A DNA stretch of 64,000 nucleotides. Source: a virus. The translations under genes and the position numbers were made by a program. Below are positions 19,615 to 46,184 of this stretch, piece by piece. Location of the stretch: the IMG/VR virus record IMGVR_UViG_3300027963_004416, positions 1-64,000 of that record; one strand, given 5' to 3'. The notes beneath the pieces were generated by a model. The model saw only the letters and a program-made list of their open reading frames with translations, was not told the origin of the DNA and made no database searches. The stretch's first letter is position 1; each line of letters opens with the position of its first letter.

Positions 19615-20013
19615 ATGAACGTGCTTGATAGCTTGATTGAAGTTCGTCTAATAAAGGAGGACGACTTTTTAAAAATTCGTGAAACTCTCACTCGTATCGG
19701 TGTGGCTTCGAGAAAAGACCGTAAGCTTTATCAATCATGTCATATTCTCCATAAGCAAGGTAGATACTATGTTGTACATTTTAAAGAATTATTCTTATTG
19801 GATGGTAAGCCATCTAACTTCTCCGAGGATGATATTGCCCGGCGCAATACGATAGTTAATCTTCTTACTGAGTGGGGACTTATACAACAGATTAACCCTC
19901 TAAAAACCAGAGAACCAGTTTCACCTTTGTCACAGATCAAAGTTCTTCCCTATAAAGAAAAAGACGAATGGGAATTAGTAGCAAAGTACAACATTGGTCG
20001 TAAGGTAAGATAA
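19615..20013 (+). CDS. regA: Translational repressor RegA
   Basis: DFLKIRETLTRIGVAS, LYQSCHILHKQGRYY.VHFKELF. Confidence 0.95.
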   Translation: MNVLDSLIEVRLIKEDDFLKIRETLTRIGVASRKDRKLYQSCHILHKQGRYYVVHFKELFLLDGKPSNFSEDDIARRNTIVNLLTEWGLIQQINPLKTREPVSPLSQIKVLPYKEKDEWELVAKYNIGRKVR

Positions 20014-41367: not shown

Positions 41368-41541
41368 ATGGCTAAGGTAAACGTGGTGTACAAGACGGTT
41401 CTGTACTTCCAGCAGCAGGTCGAGGTTCCAGAAGACCAGCTGGACAACATCAAGCAATACATTCTTGATAACGACAAGCTCAACTTCGTTGATGAGTTCG
41501 ACAGCGACACGACTATCCTCAGCTACGGGGTTGCCTCTTGA
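41368..41541 (+). CDS. Early cassette protein
   Basis: Start reassigned to ATG after AAAGGAG. Confidence 0.65.
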   Translation: MAKVNVVYKTVLYFQQQVEVPEDQLDNIKQYILDNDKLNFVDEFDSDTTILSYGVAS

Positions 41542-41596
41542 CTTTATTTCCTCACCAGGCTATAATGAATCATCATTGAGAGAGAGGAGAAGCAAG

Positions 41597-41803
41597 ATGA
41601 ACACGAAAGAAGCACTGGCAATCATAGAACAGATCCAAGCGTTCCTGCAGCAGCACGTCAACAAGGATGCTGACTTCATCCATGCGATGGAGTACACGCG
41701 AGACAACCTCGAGAGTTGTTATCAGGAAGAGAAGGAAGCGTATGCCCACCTGGTCGTGGAGATGCGCAAGATGTTCGCAGCAGTCGAGTCCATCAGGGCT
41801 TGA
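41597..41803 (+). CDS. Early cassette protein
   Basis: Start reassigned to ATG after GAGAGAGGAG. Confidence 0.65.
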   Translation: MNTKEALAIIEQIQAFLQQHVNKDADFIHAMEYTRDNLESCYQEEKEAYAHLVVEMRKMFAAVESIRA

Positions 41804-41860
41804 TTTTATTCTCGCGCCAGCTTATAATTAGTTTAACATGATGAGAGAGGGGAATGCATA

Positions 41861-42100
41861 ATGAAAGTATCTAAACTGATTGAGCTGTTAGAAGGCTTCG
41901 ATGCAGAAGCCGAAATCCATTTTACGTATGGATACAATGACTATTGGCGCACGCAGGTCGCGCCGGCTGTTCGTGATGTATTCGAGGGAGAGGTTGAGTA
42001 TAGTGAATATCACAGAACGGACAAGCTGCTTGAAGACTATGAAGGTCCTCAAGACGATGACGACGACCGAGTAGTGAGAAAGGTCGTAGTTATTCAATAA
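41861..42100 (+). CDS. Early cassette acidic protein
   Basis: Promoter 41800; Y.Y.DYWRT.VAP. Confidence 0.65.
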   Translation: MKVSKLIELLEGFDAEAEIHFTYGYNDYWRTQVAPAVRDVFEGEVEYSEYHRTDKLLEDYEGPQDDDDDRVVRKVVVIQ

Positions 42101-42291
42101 CGATTTTTGCGTTTGCGCTTGACAGTTGCAGGGGCGGTGAAGGCACCTGCAACTCTCTTAGCGATAGCCTTTTTGGTGACCGGCAGGAGATTGGTCGCGA
42201 TTTTGCCAATCCCCCTGAGTCGTTTAGACGCAACAGAGAGCCCGGTCAAGTCACCGATCAGGCCTTCGTTGAACTCTCTGAATGTCTTCAT
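42094..42291 (-). CDS. Small basic protein with capsid-targeting-like N-terminus
   Basis: MKTFREFNEG resembles the T4 internal-protein CTS. Confidence 0.6.
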   Translation of the reverse strand: MKTFREFNEGLIGDLTGLSVASKRLRGIGKIATNLLPVTKKAIAKRVAGAFTAPATVKRKRKNRY

Positions 42292-42629
42292 GGTGCAGGG
42301 TCGTTTTCGTTAGCTGCATCCATTTCAGCTTTTTGGTTTAGCGCATGTGCAACGCCGGCCATAGCAGCTTCCTTGCCGGTTCCCGCAAGCATGATGCCCG
42401 AGAGCGTGCCGCAAAGGAATGTAGCAACGGGGATGATTAGCTCGAAGAACTTTTGATCGATGGGCGAAATAGCCCCAAGCGGTTGCGTTACAAAGATGAT
42501 TGAGTACAGGACCACGAACACGATGCCGATTAGCGTCAATGCCAGGCACATGCCAATGAAGAACTTCAGACGAACCATCAATTCTTCTGATGTATATCTT
42601 TCGCCTCTTTTAGATGAAACTTCGCTCAT
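42288..42629 (-). CDS. Two-TM membrane protein
   Basis: Two hydrophobic helices. Confidence 0.65.
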   Translation of the reverse strand: MSEVSSKRGERYTSEELMVRLKFFIGMCLALTLIGIVFVVLYSIIFVTQPLGAISPIDQKFFELIIPVATFLCGTLSGIMLAGTGKEAAMAGVAHALNQKAEMDAANENDPAP

Positions 42630-42829
42630 TTTTTAGCTCCTTGTTCACTAGGAAGAATCTGCATCACTTCCGGTTGTGATTCAAAAATATATTTAGGACA
42701 GTCCCGATTTATTTCACATACAGGCGCCTTACATTCAGGCTTTTTCCAATTCTCATTATCTTGGCAAGGATACCGAAACTCAGCATCACAGCCACTTAAC
42801 AATAGCATAGTTAACATTATTCTTTTCAT
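42626..42829 (-). CDS. Small lipoprotein
   Basis: MKRIMLTMLLLSGC lipobox; late promoter TATAAATA at 42859-42866 (minus). Confidence 0.7.
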   Translation of the reverse strand: MKRIMLTMLLLSGCDAEFRYPCQDNENWKKPECKAPVCEINRDCPKYIFESQPEVMQILPSEQGAKK

Positions 42830-43357
42830 ATTCCCCCCTTTTAAGTCAACATGCCTTTTATTTATAGAGAAAGAACATGGTAATATATTATGTAGTACTA
42901 ATGACGCTGTCCGGTTCCCAGAACCTAACGCTAAAAGAATTCTCCACACATACTGAATGTGAATCGTATATGAAGAGCAACCATAAACGATTAACTAAAG
43001 TGTATTATGTGGAGAACAAACAACGAATGACCGGATCAGGATGTAGAAACAAATAATATGATATTGCTTCTCCTAATAGGATTGATAATACTAGGATGCA
43101 TGTTCGAAACTATATTGAGCATTGTGTTTCATATAGCTATCATTGCAATGCTCATGATGGGATTCGGAGTAATGGCAGCAGGAGTATACGCCCTATTGGT
43201 TACTCTGGTAGTTCTTAGCTGATTTATTAGCGAGTTTCATAGAGATATATTTTGTTAAACTGAATCGTCAAAATGTATATGGATCGCTATGATATAAGAG
43301 AATGCGTTCAATAGCGAGGTGCTGAGAAGGTCTCTGATATATTCTCTCGCTGTTTTT

Positions 43358-43440
43358 CTCTATGAAATACTCTATGAAATACTCTATGAAATACTCTATG
43401 CATTCCCCGCTATGAAACCGCTATGAAAACTCTATGCATT
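43358..43440. repeat. Tandem 12-bp repeat CTCTATGAAATA (3 perfect + 4 partial copies)
   Basis: Read directly; inverted partial copy TTTCATAGAG at 43235. Confidence 0.9.
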
Positions 43441-43571
43441 ATCGCGCCGCGCTACTATGTACAGCAAATGATTTGCAGCATTATACTACCGCAATAATCT
43501 TTCGCAAATCACTATCGCAAACAGATACAGCTAGTCATTAGCGCATTCAGCTTTCGCGCACATGATCTTCC

Positions 43572-43720
43572 ATTATGCCTGATCTCTGAAATTAAATCAA
43601 CTCAGATCAGTAGCGCAATTTGTTTGCGGTGCTAGGGCTGTGGGCCACCCGTCCCGTCCATCCCAGGCGTGCCTTTCGAATCATTAAAGACATTGTACTG
43701 GGGCGCGGAAAAAAAAACCA
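43572..43720 (-). promoter_or_regulatory. Two leftward early-type promoters
   Basis: Minus strand TGGTTT-N17-TACAAT (43720-43692) and TTGATT-N17-CATAAT (43600-43572), same spacer style as the cassette promoters. Confidence 0.65.
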
Positions 43721-43800
43721 GCACTTTTGGGGCGAGAAAGTTGTTGACTTTTTTTCCGCGCCAGGATATAATGAATCATCATGAGAGAGAGGAGTGAGAA

Positions 43801-44028
43801 ATGATCTACACGGAATCGATGATTGACCATATGATGGGCCTCGATGCACTGAGTATCGAAAAGGGCTTTCGCAATGCAGAGTACTTCGATATCAAAATTA
43901 AGTCAAGCAAGTTCGTTGGTCTGAATAGCGATGGCCATTTCGTATATAAGTGCGAGTTCTCAGAAGGAATGAAGCAAAACGTTTTCGCTACTCTTAACGA
44001 GAACTCGAAGCTGATGTGTGAATTTTGA
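43801..44028 (+). CDS. Early cassette protein
   Basis: Promoter 43744 plus GAGAGAGGAG leader. Confidence 0.7.
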   Translation: MIYTESMIDHMMGLDALSIEKGFRNAEYFDIKIKSSKFVGLNSDGHFVYKCEFSEGMKQNVFATLNENSKLMCEF

Positions 44029-44087
44029 GCTTGACTTAATTTTCGCGTCAGGATATAATGAATCATCATGAGAGAGAGGAGAGAGAA

Positions 44088-44303
44088 ATGAGCAATCAAC
44101 GTGAGATGGTTCTTGACAGTCAGATGGATGTTCTGGATAGCGCAATCATCGCCATCGGTCGTGCGATTCAAGAACTGGATAGCGGTGATCGCTGGTGCGA
44201 TTTGGATACCAATGATGCGATCTTGAAGCTCGAAGCGATTCGTCAAGAACTGACAGATCAGTACATGCTTATCGAAGACGAATTGCGTCAAATCGAGGCT
44301 TGA
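44088..44303 (+). CDS. Early acidic coiled-coil protein (paralog A)
   Basis: MSNQREMVLDSQ...; own promoter. Confidence 0.75.
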   Translation: MSNQREMVLDSQMDVLDSAIIAIGRAIQELDSGDRWCDLDTNDAILKLEAIRQELTDQYMLIEDELRQIEA

Positions 44304-44357
44304 CTTTTTTTCCGGGCTCATGCATAATGAACGTACATTAAGAGAGAGGAGTAGGAA

Positions 44358-44579
44358 ATGAACAATCAACGTGAAATGATTCTCGAAAGCCAATTGAGCA
44401 TCCTGACCAACGCAATCGTTGCATTGAGTCGCACGATCAATGAACTGGATGAAGCTGATCGCTTTCCGGATCTGGATACGAAAGAAGCTATCGCTAAACT
44501 CGAAGACGTTCGTCAGGATCTGGAAGATCAGGTGATGGGTATCGAAGAAGAGTTGAACGAAATCGAAGATAGCTTTTGA
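44358..44579 (+). CDS. Early acidic coiled-coil protein (paralog B)
   Basis: MNNQREMILESQ...; own promoter. Confidence 0.75.
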   Translation: MNNQREMILESQLSILTNAIVALSRTINELDEADRFPDLDTKEAIAKLEDVRQDLEDQVMGIEEELNEIEDSF

Positions 44580-44643
44580 ACGAAGTCGCTTGACTTAATT
44601 TCCGCGGCAGGATATAATGAATCATCATGAGAGAGAGGAGAGT

Positions 44644-44832
44644 ATGATGACGGAACTGAAACAAATCACGCTGATGCTTAACGCCGATGAAGCCGAGTTC
44701 TTGGCGCAGGCGTTGGAGATTCACGCAGACAAGTACGCAGGCAGAATCTCGTTTGTTGAGGAGCTTGATCGCTACGTGCGTTCGACTCTGCAGACGAAGT
44801 TCGATCCGGCTTTCGCGGAGGACGTAGAATGA
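44644..44832 (+). CDS. Early cassette protein
   Basis: Promoter 44590 plus leader. Confidence 0.65.
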   Translation: MMTELKQITLMLNADEAEFLAQALEIHADKYAGRISFVEELDRYVRSTLQTKFDPAFAEDVE

Positions 44833-44990
44833 CTGAGCAACAAATTGAGCTGGTCGTTGAGAAGTGGTTCGATCGCATCGACCGCCAGTATATGGGCAAC
44901 GAGTTATCCTATCAAGACTACATGGCAGAGGTCGAGGCCGTGCGCCTCTGGGCTGATGCAAAGTATGCTGAGATGACGGCGTTGCATTAA
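44829..44990 (+). CDS. Early small protein (not in ORF track)
   Basis: GGAGG RBS, ATGA overlap; MTEQQIELVVEKWFD. Confidence 0.55.
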   Translation: MTEQQIELVVEKWFDRIDRQYMGNELSYQDYMAEVEAVRLWADAKYAEMTALH

Positions 44991-45039
44991 TTTCCTCAGG
45001 AAGCTACAATGAAGTACATTGTGAGAGAGGAGAAAGACG

Positions 45040-45207
45040 GTGTACGATGCAGATGGATGGGATAGCTACGCCGCGTACGCTCATGAGCAGATGCTCGAGC
45101 TGATGTTCAAGGAGTCGGACGATTGCGTGGAGTTTGTCAACAAGTGGATCCAGGATCAGCTGGCCACGGCGGTTCCTACGGAAGTGTTTCAGGAGATTGA
45201 GCAATGA
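45040..45207 (+). CDS. Early small acidic protein (not in ORF track)
   Basis: GTG start after the GTGAGAGAGGAG leader. Confidence 0.55.
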   Translation: MYDADGWDSYAAYAHEQMLELMFKESDDCVEFVNKWIQDQLATAVPTEVFQEIEQ

Positions 45208-45398
45208 GTGCAATGAGTGATCTGGATATCGTCAAGCAAGAGGTCTTCGAGTTCTTGGATGACCTGCGGTTGAGCGGTGAGACCAACATGTTTGGAGCTG
45301 CACCGTACATCGTCGAGGAGTTTGGCATGAACAAGGCTGAGGCGCGCGTCCTGTTGAGTGCATGGATGCAGACGTTCAGCGAGCGTCACGCAGCGTAA
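45204..45398 (+). CDS. Conserved small phage protein
   Basis: FLDDLR.SG.TNMFGAAPY...F...EAR..L..WM. Confidence 0.7.
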   Translation: MSAMSDLDIVKQEVFEFLDDLRLSGETNMFGAAPYIVEEFGMNKAEARVLLSAWMQTFSERHAA

Positions 45399-45399
45399 G

Positions 45400-45586
45400 A
45401 ACCGACCAGGTGGTGTACGGCTGCCAAAGCCACCGGGTGACTATGAGCAGGGTCGAGCCTGGGACATGACCCAAAAACAGGCAACGATTTCCCCCGGTGG
45501 CCTCGGCTCCTCTCTCACTCTCCGCAGAGGCCACCACCCAACCTGTCGCCCGCGTGCGACCCCGGACCAGTAACCGGGACCTTTTC
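45400..45586 (+). ncRNA. Candidate structured sRNA with anti-RBS loop
   Basis: Five hairpins; GGTGGCCTC/GAGGCCACC stem encloses CTCCTCTCTCAC, the reverse complement of the early-gene leaders. Confidence 0.6.
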
Positions 45587-45648
45587 TGGTTGCGTTTATT
45601 TCCTGAAGACGTCATAATGAAGTACATTGTGAGAGAGGAGTGAAAGAA

Positions 45649-46020
45649 ATGCAAGCAACCTACACCTTCGACGAAAACATCGTCAGCGACCTGCACAAGG
45701 ATGCCTACGGCTTTCGTCCGAGCCAGTCGTTCTGGGAGTACTGGACAGGTGCCGACGACGACCGCAAGCAGCGGATCTGGGACGACCTGCTGGGTGCCCT
45801 GGATCGTGAGATGGAGTACCAGCGTCAGCGTGAAGCTGAGGCCGTGGAGGATTTCGATGAGATGCTCGATCGACTGTACCGGGCCGGTGCGAAGGACTTC
45901 ACGATGGCGATCAAGTGGGCACATGATGCGCACGATACGGACGGGGACGATGAGTACCTGGAGTACACCCTCGGTCTGCCGTTCAACCACATCCGCAAAG
46001 CACGCGAGGCCACGAAGTAG
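45649..46020 (+). CDS. Early conserved phage protein
   Basis: SDLHKDAYGFRP motif; promoter 45590. Confidence 0.7.
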   Translation: MQATYTFDENIVSDLHKDAYGFRPSQSFWEYWTGADDDRKQRIWDDLLGALDREMEYQRQREAEAVEDFDEMLDRLYRAGAKDFTMAIKWAHDAHDTDGDDEYLEYTLGLPFNHIRKAREATK

Positions 46021-46184
46021 TGGCCTTATTTTCGTGTGGCGCCGATAATGAATCATCAAGAGAGAGAAAGAGGAGTAGGGAAATGAAAGAACTGATCTTT
46101 GTTGCATTCTGCGTTATGGGTGGTTACGGTCTGCATGACATGGTTATCACTTTGAGCAAGCTGGCTCACTAAGGAGAGAGAGAA

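Follow-up and report, generated by a model that had tools for sequence, protein, structure and literature searches.

A conserved structured RNA with a leader-complementary loop in the early region of a T4-like phage, a candidate anti-Shine-Dalgarno riboregulator

The early gene region of an uncultured T4-like phage harbors a conserved, structured, non-coding element of ~190 nucleotides (nt), and one of its loops is complementary to the ribosome-binding leaders of the phage's own early gene cassettes. The element occupies positions 45399-45589 of the window, by which we mean the first 64 kb of the 145,707-bp IMG/VR virus record IMGVR_UViG_3300027963_004416 (estimated completeness, 85%). It follows two small early genes, here termed C and D, and precedes a third, gene E, which has a promoter of its own. 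In the most likely reading, the element forms the 3' end of the early transcript of genes C and D and works as an anti-Shine-Dalgarno riboregulator. An original prediction, made from the letters of the window, had gone further and proposed a master off-switch small RNA (sRNA) that silences a whole regulon of early cassettes. Its statements about the sequence, namely the 12-nt complementarity, the 10-nt cores, and the leader positions, all hold in the window and in the full record. The structured RNA with its leader-complementary loop likewise stands, in three lineages. The off-switch part is not borne out: a promoter belonging to the element was looked for in the window and not found, and exact 12-nt matches are limited to the two flanking leaders.

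Extent and predicted structure of the element

The element fills most of a 251-nt gap that runs from the stop codon at 45398 to the ATG at 45649. Its guanine-cytosine (GC) content reaches 63.9%, compared with 51-59% in the flanking genes and ~40% in the phage. RNAfold and RNAalifold both predict five hairpins (0, A, B, C, and D; Table 1), in agreement with the earlier description of a GC-rich gap packed with hairpins. In the minimum-energy fold (RNAfold), 11 of the 12 antisense bases are predicted to lie inside the 16-nt loop of hairpin B, closed by a 9(+2)-bp stem, which recovers the loop display that had been described. Unpairing the antisense 12-mer costs ~2 kcal/mol in this model. The z-score of the fold is modest (-1.94 on the + strand and -1.09 on the - strand), and the predicted structure draws its real support from covariation among relatives.

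A promoter scan of the window returned no promoter belonging to the element itself. The promoter at 44982, which serves genes C and D, heads a transcription unit whose 3' end holds the element. Since no promoter of its own precedes it, the element would be the 3' untranslated region (UTR) of the C-D transcript or a fragment thereof. Its 3' end is terminator-like. A terminator consensus scan reported 45561-45578 followed by ACCTTTTCTG, and an alternative hairpin at 45570-45593 followed by GTTTATTTCC, which overlaps the next -35 box. Hairpin D has a stem of only 5 bp, and the U-tract that follows is short and set off from it. All lineages carry this hairpin and the ACCTTTTC tail in near-identical form.

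Searches for known RNA classes were negative. No transfer RNA (tRNA) or transfer-messenger RNA was found at the element, and no Rfam family matched in the window or in three other lineages (four lineages in all). No second copy turned up in the phage: a search with model R1 of hairpin B gave one occurrence, and so did a search with the motif ACGGCTGCCA. A comparison of the loops of hairpins 0 and A with the genome yielded two complementary 10-mers only, a chance-level result, and neither lies at a ribosome-binding site.

A coding region on either strand was considered and rejected, given 1-nt insertions or deletions at three places among close relatives as well as hairpin insertions of 75-110 nt. 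The open reading frames (ORFs) at 45358-45573, 45497-45643, and 45376-46107 on the - strand (243 amino acids) are accordingly taken as spurious, because their frame is broken among relatives.

Conservation and covariation among relatives

Relatives were collected from three IMG/VR records at first and then from ~12 further contigs, obtained through a metagenome pattern scan and exact-protein look-ups. In these relatives, the element is always found 3' of a gene D homolog. Two lineages are well diverged, L077/L033 and L082/L083, with gene D products 65.6% and 59.7% identical to that of the window. Nucleotide identities to the window amount to 80.8% and 70.1% for the RNA module in these two lineages, versus 71.9% and 66.1% for gene D. 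By this comparison, the element is as conserved as the adjacent gene; with the single-base insertions and deletions among close relatives, this marks it as non-coding and under selection.

Two stems covary strongly. In hairpin 0, all six pairs are changed on both sides across four lineages, and pairing stays at 100%. Its stem occurs in four versions around the core ACGGCTGCCA, namely GGTGG/CCACC, GATGG/CCATC, CATCGG/CCGATG, and GACAG/CTGTC. The U·G pairs among them would be A·C on the opposite strand, so the RNA is assigned to the + strand. In hairpin B, 4 of the 12 pairs are changed on both sides and pairing is 94.8%; none of 500 shuffles scored as high. The stem versions are GGTGGCCTC/GAGGCCACC, GAGGCCCTC/GAGGGCCTC, and AGAGGCGCCA/TGGCGCCTCT, the third being that of L082, and a fourth, compensated variant is present in the L006 group. 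Hairpins A, C, and D give no covariation signal because their stems are invariant where present. Taken as comparative evidence, these patterns lend good support to a conserved, non-coding, structured + strand RNA element.

The two upstream hairpins also occur without the others. In L086 (IMGVR_UViG_3300047284_000539, 890-1161), hairpin 0, the linker, and hairpin A stand alone, without hairpins B-D, which suggests that hairpins 0 and A (module 1) form an independent small-RNA unit. There, the module begins ~30 nt after a sigma-70-like promoter (TTGATT-17-TATAAT) and lies ~70 nt before a tRNA-Trp gene. This arrangement recalls the unexplained RNA C and RNA D of the T4 tRNA region.

In two lineages, an insertion lies between hairpins A and B. 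L077 carries a ~75-nt palindromic insertion there (L077:1364-1462), bordered on both sides by the direct repeat ACTTATACGT and ending in imperfect inverted repeats (GTGAGTCAGCTGG / CTAGCTGGCTCAC). In appearance, it is a small mobile element of the hairpin type that duplicated its target site. A different insertion, likewise beginning CTTATACG, occupies the identical position in L082. In L033 (OGWM01002221.1, 2564-2635), the contig ends in the Illumina adapter AGATCGGAAGAGCACACGTCTGAACTCCAGTCAC..., an assembly artifact that truncates the element; L077 holds the complete version.

The element was absent from the sequences of L008-L016, which encode distant gene D homologs and have other promoter types, and from those of L080 and L081, which encode gene E homologs. 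In L124-L127, also with gene E homologs, there appears to be no room for it, as judged from the short gene spacings alone. Two further candidates, L084 and L085, were dismissed as chance matches within coding sequence. A bacterial origin was also explored: an exact-pattern scan of bacterial genomes for hairpin 0 and the linker gave 37 matches, all of them chance or coding and none with hairpin A. Several of these, from Verrucomicrobiota, represent one conserved protein N-terminus, TYGCQMNERDSEQ, which is probably MiaB/RimO-like.

The early-cassette leaders

On the + strand, the window holds seven copies of GAGAGAGGAG (41580, 43785, 44072, 44342, 44631, 45023, and 45631), and the rest of the 145,707-bp record adds no further copy. 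Every copy belongs to a promoter-leader unit, with an ATG or GTG 6-9 nt further on and TTGACT-17-TATAAT or a near variant ~20 nt upstream, that is, a sigma-70-like -35 box, a 17-nt spacer, and a -10 box. An eighth, looser leader, AGAGAGAGAAAGAGGAG, precedes an ORF of 29 amino acids at 46083. This ORF (46083-46172) is hydrophobic (MKELIFVAFCVMGGYGLHDMVITLSKLAH) and may encode a small membrane peptide.

By their architecture, these leaders are early cassettes of the promoter-early stem-loop (PeSL) type, a known class in T4-like phages. Such units combine a sigma-70-like early promoter, a Shine-Dalgarno (SD) sequence, and a start codon, often with an upstream stem-loop; they recur in hyperplastic regions and are implicated in modular shuffling, and their uniformity is ascribed to recombination (PMC4122927). 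When the window is compared with its relatives, the small ORFs around the element vary in order and content, and the breakpoints fall at the repeated PeSL units. Only two units of the window have an upstream stem-loop: the one at 45590, where the stem-loop is the element, and the one at 46021, with a hairpin at 46006-46027. At the remaining units, the upstream stop codon abuts or overlaps the -35 box. The original prediction had invoked an RNA regulator to explain why the leaders are long and uniform. That argument falls away, because PeSL shuffling by recombination already accounts for both properties (PMC4122927).

A separate feature of these units is their conserved T-rich promoter spacer (TTTATTTCC / TTTTTTTCC), which is complementary to the segment from SD to AUG within the same unit (GGAGTGAAAGAAATG). 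When read-through RNA across the gene E unit (45590-45651) is folded by prediction, the spacer sequesters the gene E SD and AUG; transcripts that start at the unit's own promoter do not contain the spacer. As modeled, this pairing could be a built-in device that restricts translation to transcripts from the own promoter, as in T4 gene e.

Complementarity between the hairpin B loop and the leaders

The loop sequence CTCCTCTCTCAC (45507-45518) is the exact reverse complement of GTGAGAGAGGAG, present at 45021-45032 and 45629-45640, in the leaders on either side of the element. Pairing extends over 12 exact nt with these two flanking leaders only and over 10 contiguous nt with the five others. On the - strand, GAGAGAGGAG occurs once in the whole 145,707-bp record, at 45507-45516, where dinucleotide shuffles of the window predict 0.1. 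Counted over both strands of the window, it has 8 matches versus 0.10 expected, a number reached in none of 100 shuffles. Statistically, then, the complementarity is beyond chance. Net pairing energies, with the opening of both partners paid, range from -13 to -20 kcal/mol for the eight window leaders.

The loop varies together with the leaders of each lineage. It keeps CTCCTCTCTC in the window and L077, or CCTCTCTCTCC in L082, always 3' of a conserved TTCCCCC tract. In window-type loci, the gene E leader is ATTGTGAGAGAGGAG and the loop CTCCTCTCTCAC (...CTCTCAC); in L077, the leader is ATTGAGAGAGAGGAG and the loop CTCCTCTCTCTC (...CTCTCTC), again a perfect match over 12 nt. The sole leader difference between the two, a T-to-A change, is answered by an A-to-T change in the loop, and both lineages retain 12 perfect pairs. 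Substitutions within the 12-mer of close relatives, A to G in L007/L071/L079 and C to T in L006/L063/L067, both stay paired through G·U. In L072, a cassette swap has placed CTGAGAGAGAGGAG upstream, and the loop remains an exact match to the downstream gene E leader.

L082 has leaders of another type, AAGGAGAGAGA (…ACTGACTTCAAGGAGAGAGAAATG), and its loop holds UCUCUCUCC. GGAGAGA occurs three times in the 3.5-kb L082 locus, each time at a ribosome-binding site. Against its own leaders, the L082 loop matches 9 nt in one and 7 nt in two, versus 5 nt in the one gene without such a leader. Composition-preserving shuffles of the loop rarely reach the observed own-leader match (P=0.0002 in the window, 0.001 in L077, and 0.024 in L082). 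Net energies are -16 to -18 kcal/mol in L077 and -12 kcal/mol in L082, versus -3.4 kcal/mol for the non-matching gene. In L086, which lacks hairpin B, the 1.4 kb of available sequence is also free of (GA)n leaders. These comparisons give good support to the view that the hairpin B loop tracks each lineage's own leaders.

Proposed mechanism and alternative explanations

In the mechanism we favor, the gene C-D early transcript would start at the 44982 promoter and end at hairpin D and its U-tract, carrying the element as its 3' end. Hairpin B would hold the pyrimidine-rich loop open as an extended anti-SD. The partner of this loop could be (GA)nGGAG, the purine-rich leader found in the PeSL early cassettes of the phage itself, with 12 bp formed at the flanking two and 10 bp at the other five. 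Such pairing would cover the SD and block 30S binding, and the accumulation of a stable folded RNA would lead to negative feedback on early-cassette translation. We infer from the sequence a stable RNA species, its pairing in vivo, repression, and action in trans on leaders beyond the local ones. The element does carry what is expected of a trans-acting sRNA, an accessible seed complementary to translation-initiation regions and maintained in evolution. That it pairs with several leaders in trans and dampens early-cassette translation is a real possibility, which we put forward tentatively.

A more ambitious version, which we regard as doubtful, casts the element as a base-pairing counterpart of the T4 nuclease RegB. 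A stable early RNA would titrate the private leader shared by the PeSL units and close the early translation program, with the loop co-evolving with the leader. RegB (PF10715) was not detected in the 85%-complete record, in a search that matched no control genome either, so that its absence is not established; the non-detection is counted in favor of the pairing mechanism.

Several observations weigh against the pairing mechanism. With no separate promoter found for it, the RNA would be produced in a 1:1 ratio to one of the leaders it targets. A 12-bp helix within a 16-nt loop is sterically strained. In predicted read-through folds, the promoter spacer already occupies the gene E SD by local pairing, and the loop is left free. 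For the L082 loop, the match to window-type leaders (10 nt) slightly exceeds the match to leaders of its own lineage (9 nt). A CU-rich loop is, moreover, bound to fit purine-rich SD leaders to some degree. In a raw duplex-energy scan, the leaders fall within ~the top 0.2% of windows and are not uniquely at the top, which makes energy alone a weak discriminator. The loop-leader covariation that the original prediction would entail exists as one matched change in L077, with wobble pairing kept elsewhere; no other position shows true covariation, and the (TC)n/(GA)n tracts around this one are prone to slippage. The element and its matching loop are kept in three lineages, but L080 and L081 encode a gene E that is 79% identical, behind a similar leader, without the element, which is hence dispensable for gene E.

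Pairing could also be restricted to the same molecule, as local tuning. The partner would then be the gene E leader, 110 nt downstream in a read-through RNA, or the 5' leader of the C-D messenger RNA (mRNA) itself; in the read-through case, gene E would be translated solely from its own promoter. Action in cis is as compatible with the data as a discrete trans-acting sRNA, and a mechanism working in cis only seems unlikely to us. It would fit the restriction of exact 12-nt matches to the two flanking leaders, the L072 locus in which the loop still matches the downstream leader after the upstream one was swapped, and the fact that window-type and L077 lineages inherit gene E together with its promoter and the element. 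T4 offers a precedent: in genes e, soc, 49, and I-TevI, the SD/AUG is sequestered when the gene is part of a long early transcript (PMC3014915). In L082, however, the gene directly downstream matches over 5 nt (net -3.4 kcal/mol), whereas three other leaders match over 7-9 nt. The spacer alone also sequesters the gene E SD and AUG in read-through folds without help from the loop, and the conserved hairpin D with its U-tract is a likely stop.

A further explanation, to which we grant some weight and which we still hold to be fairly improbable, makes the element a structural 3'-end module of the C-D transcript, such as a terminator, a barrier to 3' exonucleases, or a processing or protein-binding site. 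The complementarity would then be a by-product, and the CU-rich loop could be kept for some other purpose, for example as a site for S1 or for an RNA-binding protein of the phage. The conservation of hairpins 0, A, C, and D, which have no complementarity to leaders, points in this direction, as do the solitary hairpins 0 and A beside a tRNA in L086. The 3' half of the loop (ACTCYCCG) is conserved though not antisense to the leader, and the L082 loop is not the best fit to its own leaders. The PeSL definition itself includes an upstream stem-loop viewed as a terminator (PMC4122927). On the other hand, a by-product would not be expected to show the matched T/A to A/T change and the wobble-preserving substitutions, nor match runs that composition-preserving shuffles rarely reach. 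Most PeSL units of the window lack an upstream stem-loop, so a 190-nt multi-hairpin unit is unnecessary for cassette function.

Two other possibilities carry far less weight. The element might be a general anti-SD RNA directed at host mRNAs with GGAG-type SDs for host shut-off, the phage-leader match being secondary. The loop and the flanking UCCCCC tract do contain CUCC/CCUC motifs that fit any strong SD, and they resemble cuckoo/CcsR-type loops (PMC4615179). Yet the complementarity runs on for 10-12 nt, into the (GA)n portion of the leader that is specific to the phage, and follows its lineage variants, and no host target can be named; we find this option improbable. More improbable still is a feature of the DNA itself, in which the 12-mer is the scar of an inverted PeSL fragment or forms with the 45629 leader a 12-bp inverted repeat that enables inversion of the gene E promoter. 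PeSLs do recombine and shuffle (PMC4122927), and shuffling is visible among the relatives. The copies at 45507-45518 and 45629-45640 also flank the promoter, and inverted repeats kept identical would seem to covary. Against this, with the 12-mer masked, five of the seven units fall below the 95% shuffle value; of the other two, one equals it (18 vs 18) and one lies slightly above (19 vs 17). The motif sits in the loop of a covarying stem with U·G pairs, which DNA repeats do not explain. No recombinase lies nearby, seven direct copies would give deletions rather than a switch, and none of the ~15 relatives has the inverted arrangement. The original prediction had named a decayed inverted leader as the outcome that would undo it; no consistent cassette similarity extends beyond the 12-mer, and the stem covaries, so the motif does not appear to be one.

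Comparison with known regulatory systems

The loops of c4 RNA, which is processed from an operon transcript to a discrete ~77-nt RNA, pair with the ribosome-binding region of the downstream gene (icd/ant) and repress it. In phages P1/P7, this antisense RNA (Citron & Schuster 1990) is co-transcribed upstream of its target and has its binding site just upstream of icd (PMC8198154). The element resembles c4 (Rfam C4, RF01695) as a phage-encoded structured RNA located upstream in the transcription unit of a target, with exposed segments complementary to a ribosome-binding site, although here it is a candidate only. The systems differ in several respects. c4 controls immunity in temperate phages, whereas the phage studied here is lytic and T4-like. 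The element is separated from its nearest target by a promoter, and its candidate targets, seven or eight in number, are dispersed. In the window, the covariance model RF01695 had no match at the gathering score, or even with E values up to 10 allowed; three other lineages, searched at E up to 1, had none either.

The cuckoo / CcsR / alpha-r14 sRNAs of Alphaproteobacteria comprise 2-4 adjacent hairpins, each with CCUCCUCCC in its loop (PMC4615179). In these sRNAs as in the element, variable, covarying stems display a fixed pyrimidine-rich anti-SD loop motif. The element, however, has one CU-rich loop among five, with the motif CUCCUCUCUC, and its other loops (e.g., ACGGCUGCCA) are unrelated. 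It is also phage-borne and matched to the phage's own cassette leaders. Among known systems, c4 and the cuckoo/CcsR sRNAs come nearest in working principle, but on these features and the search results, the element lies outside both families.

The relation to PeSL units is closer, since the candidate targets are such units and the element occupies the stem-loop position upstream of one of their promoters. The stem-loops described so far are short single hairpins seen as terminators, and the parts of the 2014 description covered here make no mention of a stem-loop antisense to a PeSL leader (PMC4122927). Post-transcriptional silencing at the ribosome-binding site also has precedents in T4. Local helices sequester the SD/AUG of genes e, soc, 49, and I-TevI, so that silencing depends on the promoter from which the transcript starts (PMC3014915). 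RegB cleaves GGAG in early SDs and thereby inactivates early mRNAs as a class (PMC3014915, PMC1702504). T4 thus relies on local helices and on a nuclease made of protein, whereas the anti-SD of the element resides in a distant, separately folded loop that possibly acts in trans.

In the icaR mRNA of Staphylococcus aureus, a C-rich anti-SD in the 3' UTR pairs with the mRNA's own SD and blocks translation. That system is bacterial and has a single target, whereas the loop of the element also fits leaders of other transcripts. No phage sRNA directed at early SDs of the same phage turned up in a literature search. From these comparisons, the element is an undescribed RNA family whose working principle would be that of a known kind of regulator.

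Genomic setting

Core genes and head-protein identities place the phage as a distant, uncultured T4-like myovirus. It encodes T4-type core proteins, including a gp23-like head protein and UvsW-, gp46-, gp43-, and gp41-like proteins. The major head protein is 69% identical to that of Stenotrophomonas phage DLP6 and 65% to that of Methylophilales phage Melnitz. The window also contains 14 tRNA genes at 20-23.5 kb and a homolog of the translational repressor RegA at 19633-19998 (PF01818, E=2.5e-42). A DNA search of the phage collection gave no match to known phages.

The element lies in a GC-rich island at 44-46 kb (51.6%), in which genes C-E reach 53-59%, compared with ~40% for the phage. The nearest homologs of gene E in cultured phages are rhizobial (Mesorhizobium, Sinorhizobium, and Agrobacterium phages; 31-40% identity). 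Together, these two observations suggest that the gene C-E module was imported. Gene E is the immediate downstream neighbor of the element in the window-type and L077 lineages. It is followed by the terminator-like hairpin at 46006-46027 (GAGGCCAC...GTGGCCTT and ATTTTC), which has the 8-mer arms of hairpin B in swapped order. In the window, GAGGCCAC is confined to hairpin B and the 46006-46027 sites, with 3 matches versus 0.74 expected; 6 of 100 shuffles reach 3.

Table 1. Features of the early region around the structured element, in window coordinates
Feature	Coordinates	Strand	Description
Five further PeSL units	41538-44646	+	GAGAGAGGAG leaders at 41580, 43785, 44072, 44342, 44631
PeSL promoter and leader of genes C and D	44982-45039	+	TTGCAT-17-TACAAT; leader GTGAGAGAGGAG (45021-45032)
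Gene C	45040-45207	+	Small early ORF, 55 amino acids; overlaps gene D
Gene D	45204-45398	+	Small early ORF, 64 amino acids; overlaps gene C
Hairpin 0	45409-45434	+	6-bp stem 45409-45414 / 45429-45434; invariant loop core ACGGCTGCCA (45417-45426)
Linker GTGACTNNGAGCAGG	45435-45456	+	Conserved, between hairpins 0 and A
Hairpin A	45457-45482	+	GCCTG/CAGGC; 16-nt loop; stem invariant in all lineages
Single-stranded TTTCCCCC tract	45488-45495	+	Just 5' of hairpin B; kept in three lineages
Hairpin B	45496-45535	+	Stem GGTGGCCTC/GAGGCCACC (+GC/GC); 16-nt CU-rich loop 45508-45523
Hairpin C	45545-45560	+	GTCGC/GCGAC; stem kept in L072 and L082 (loops differ), replaced in L077
Hairpin D and ACCTTTTCT	45561-45589	+	CCCGG/CCGGG (45561-45578); terminator-like 3' end
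PeSL promoter and leader of gene E	45590-45648	+	TTGCGT (45590-45595), 17-nt spacer, CATAAT (45613-45618); leader GTGAGAGAGGAG (45629-45640)
Gene E	45649-46020	+	123 amino acids; PHROG 21968, function unknown

Significance

The element is a covariation-backed candidate with a defined seed and seven to eight defined targets. Should the pairing fail, an undescribed conserved phage RNA would still remain, of which hairpins 0 and A also occur as a module beside a tRNA gene in another phage. If the proposed regulation is true, T4-like phages would have their first regulatory RNA that acts in trans, and the uniformity of PeSL leaders would be tied to regulation besides recombination. PeSL cassettes would then be more than portable promoters, as genes landing behind them would automatically join a shared post-transcriptional circuit. 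Such a circuit would bear on how new genes are taken up and brought under control in the hyperplastic regions of these phages.

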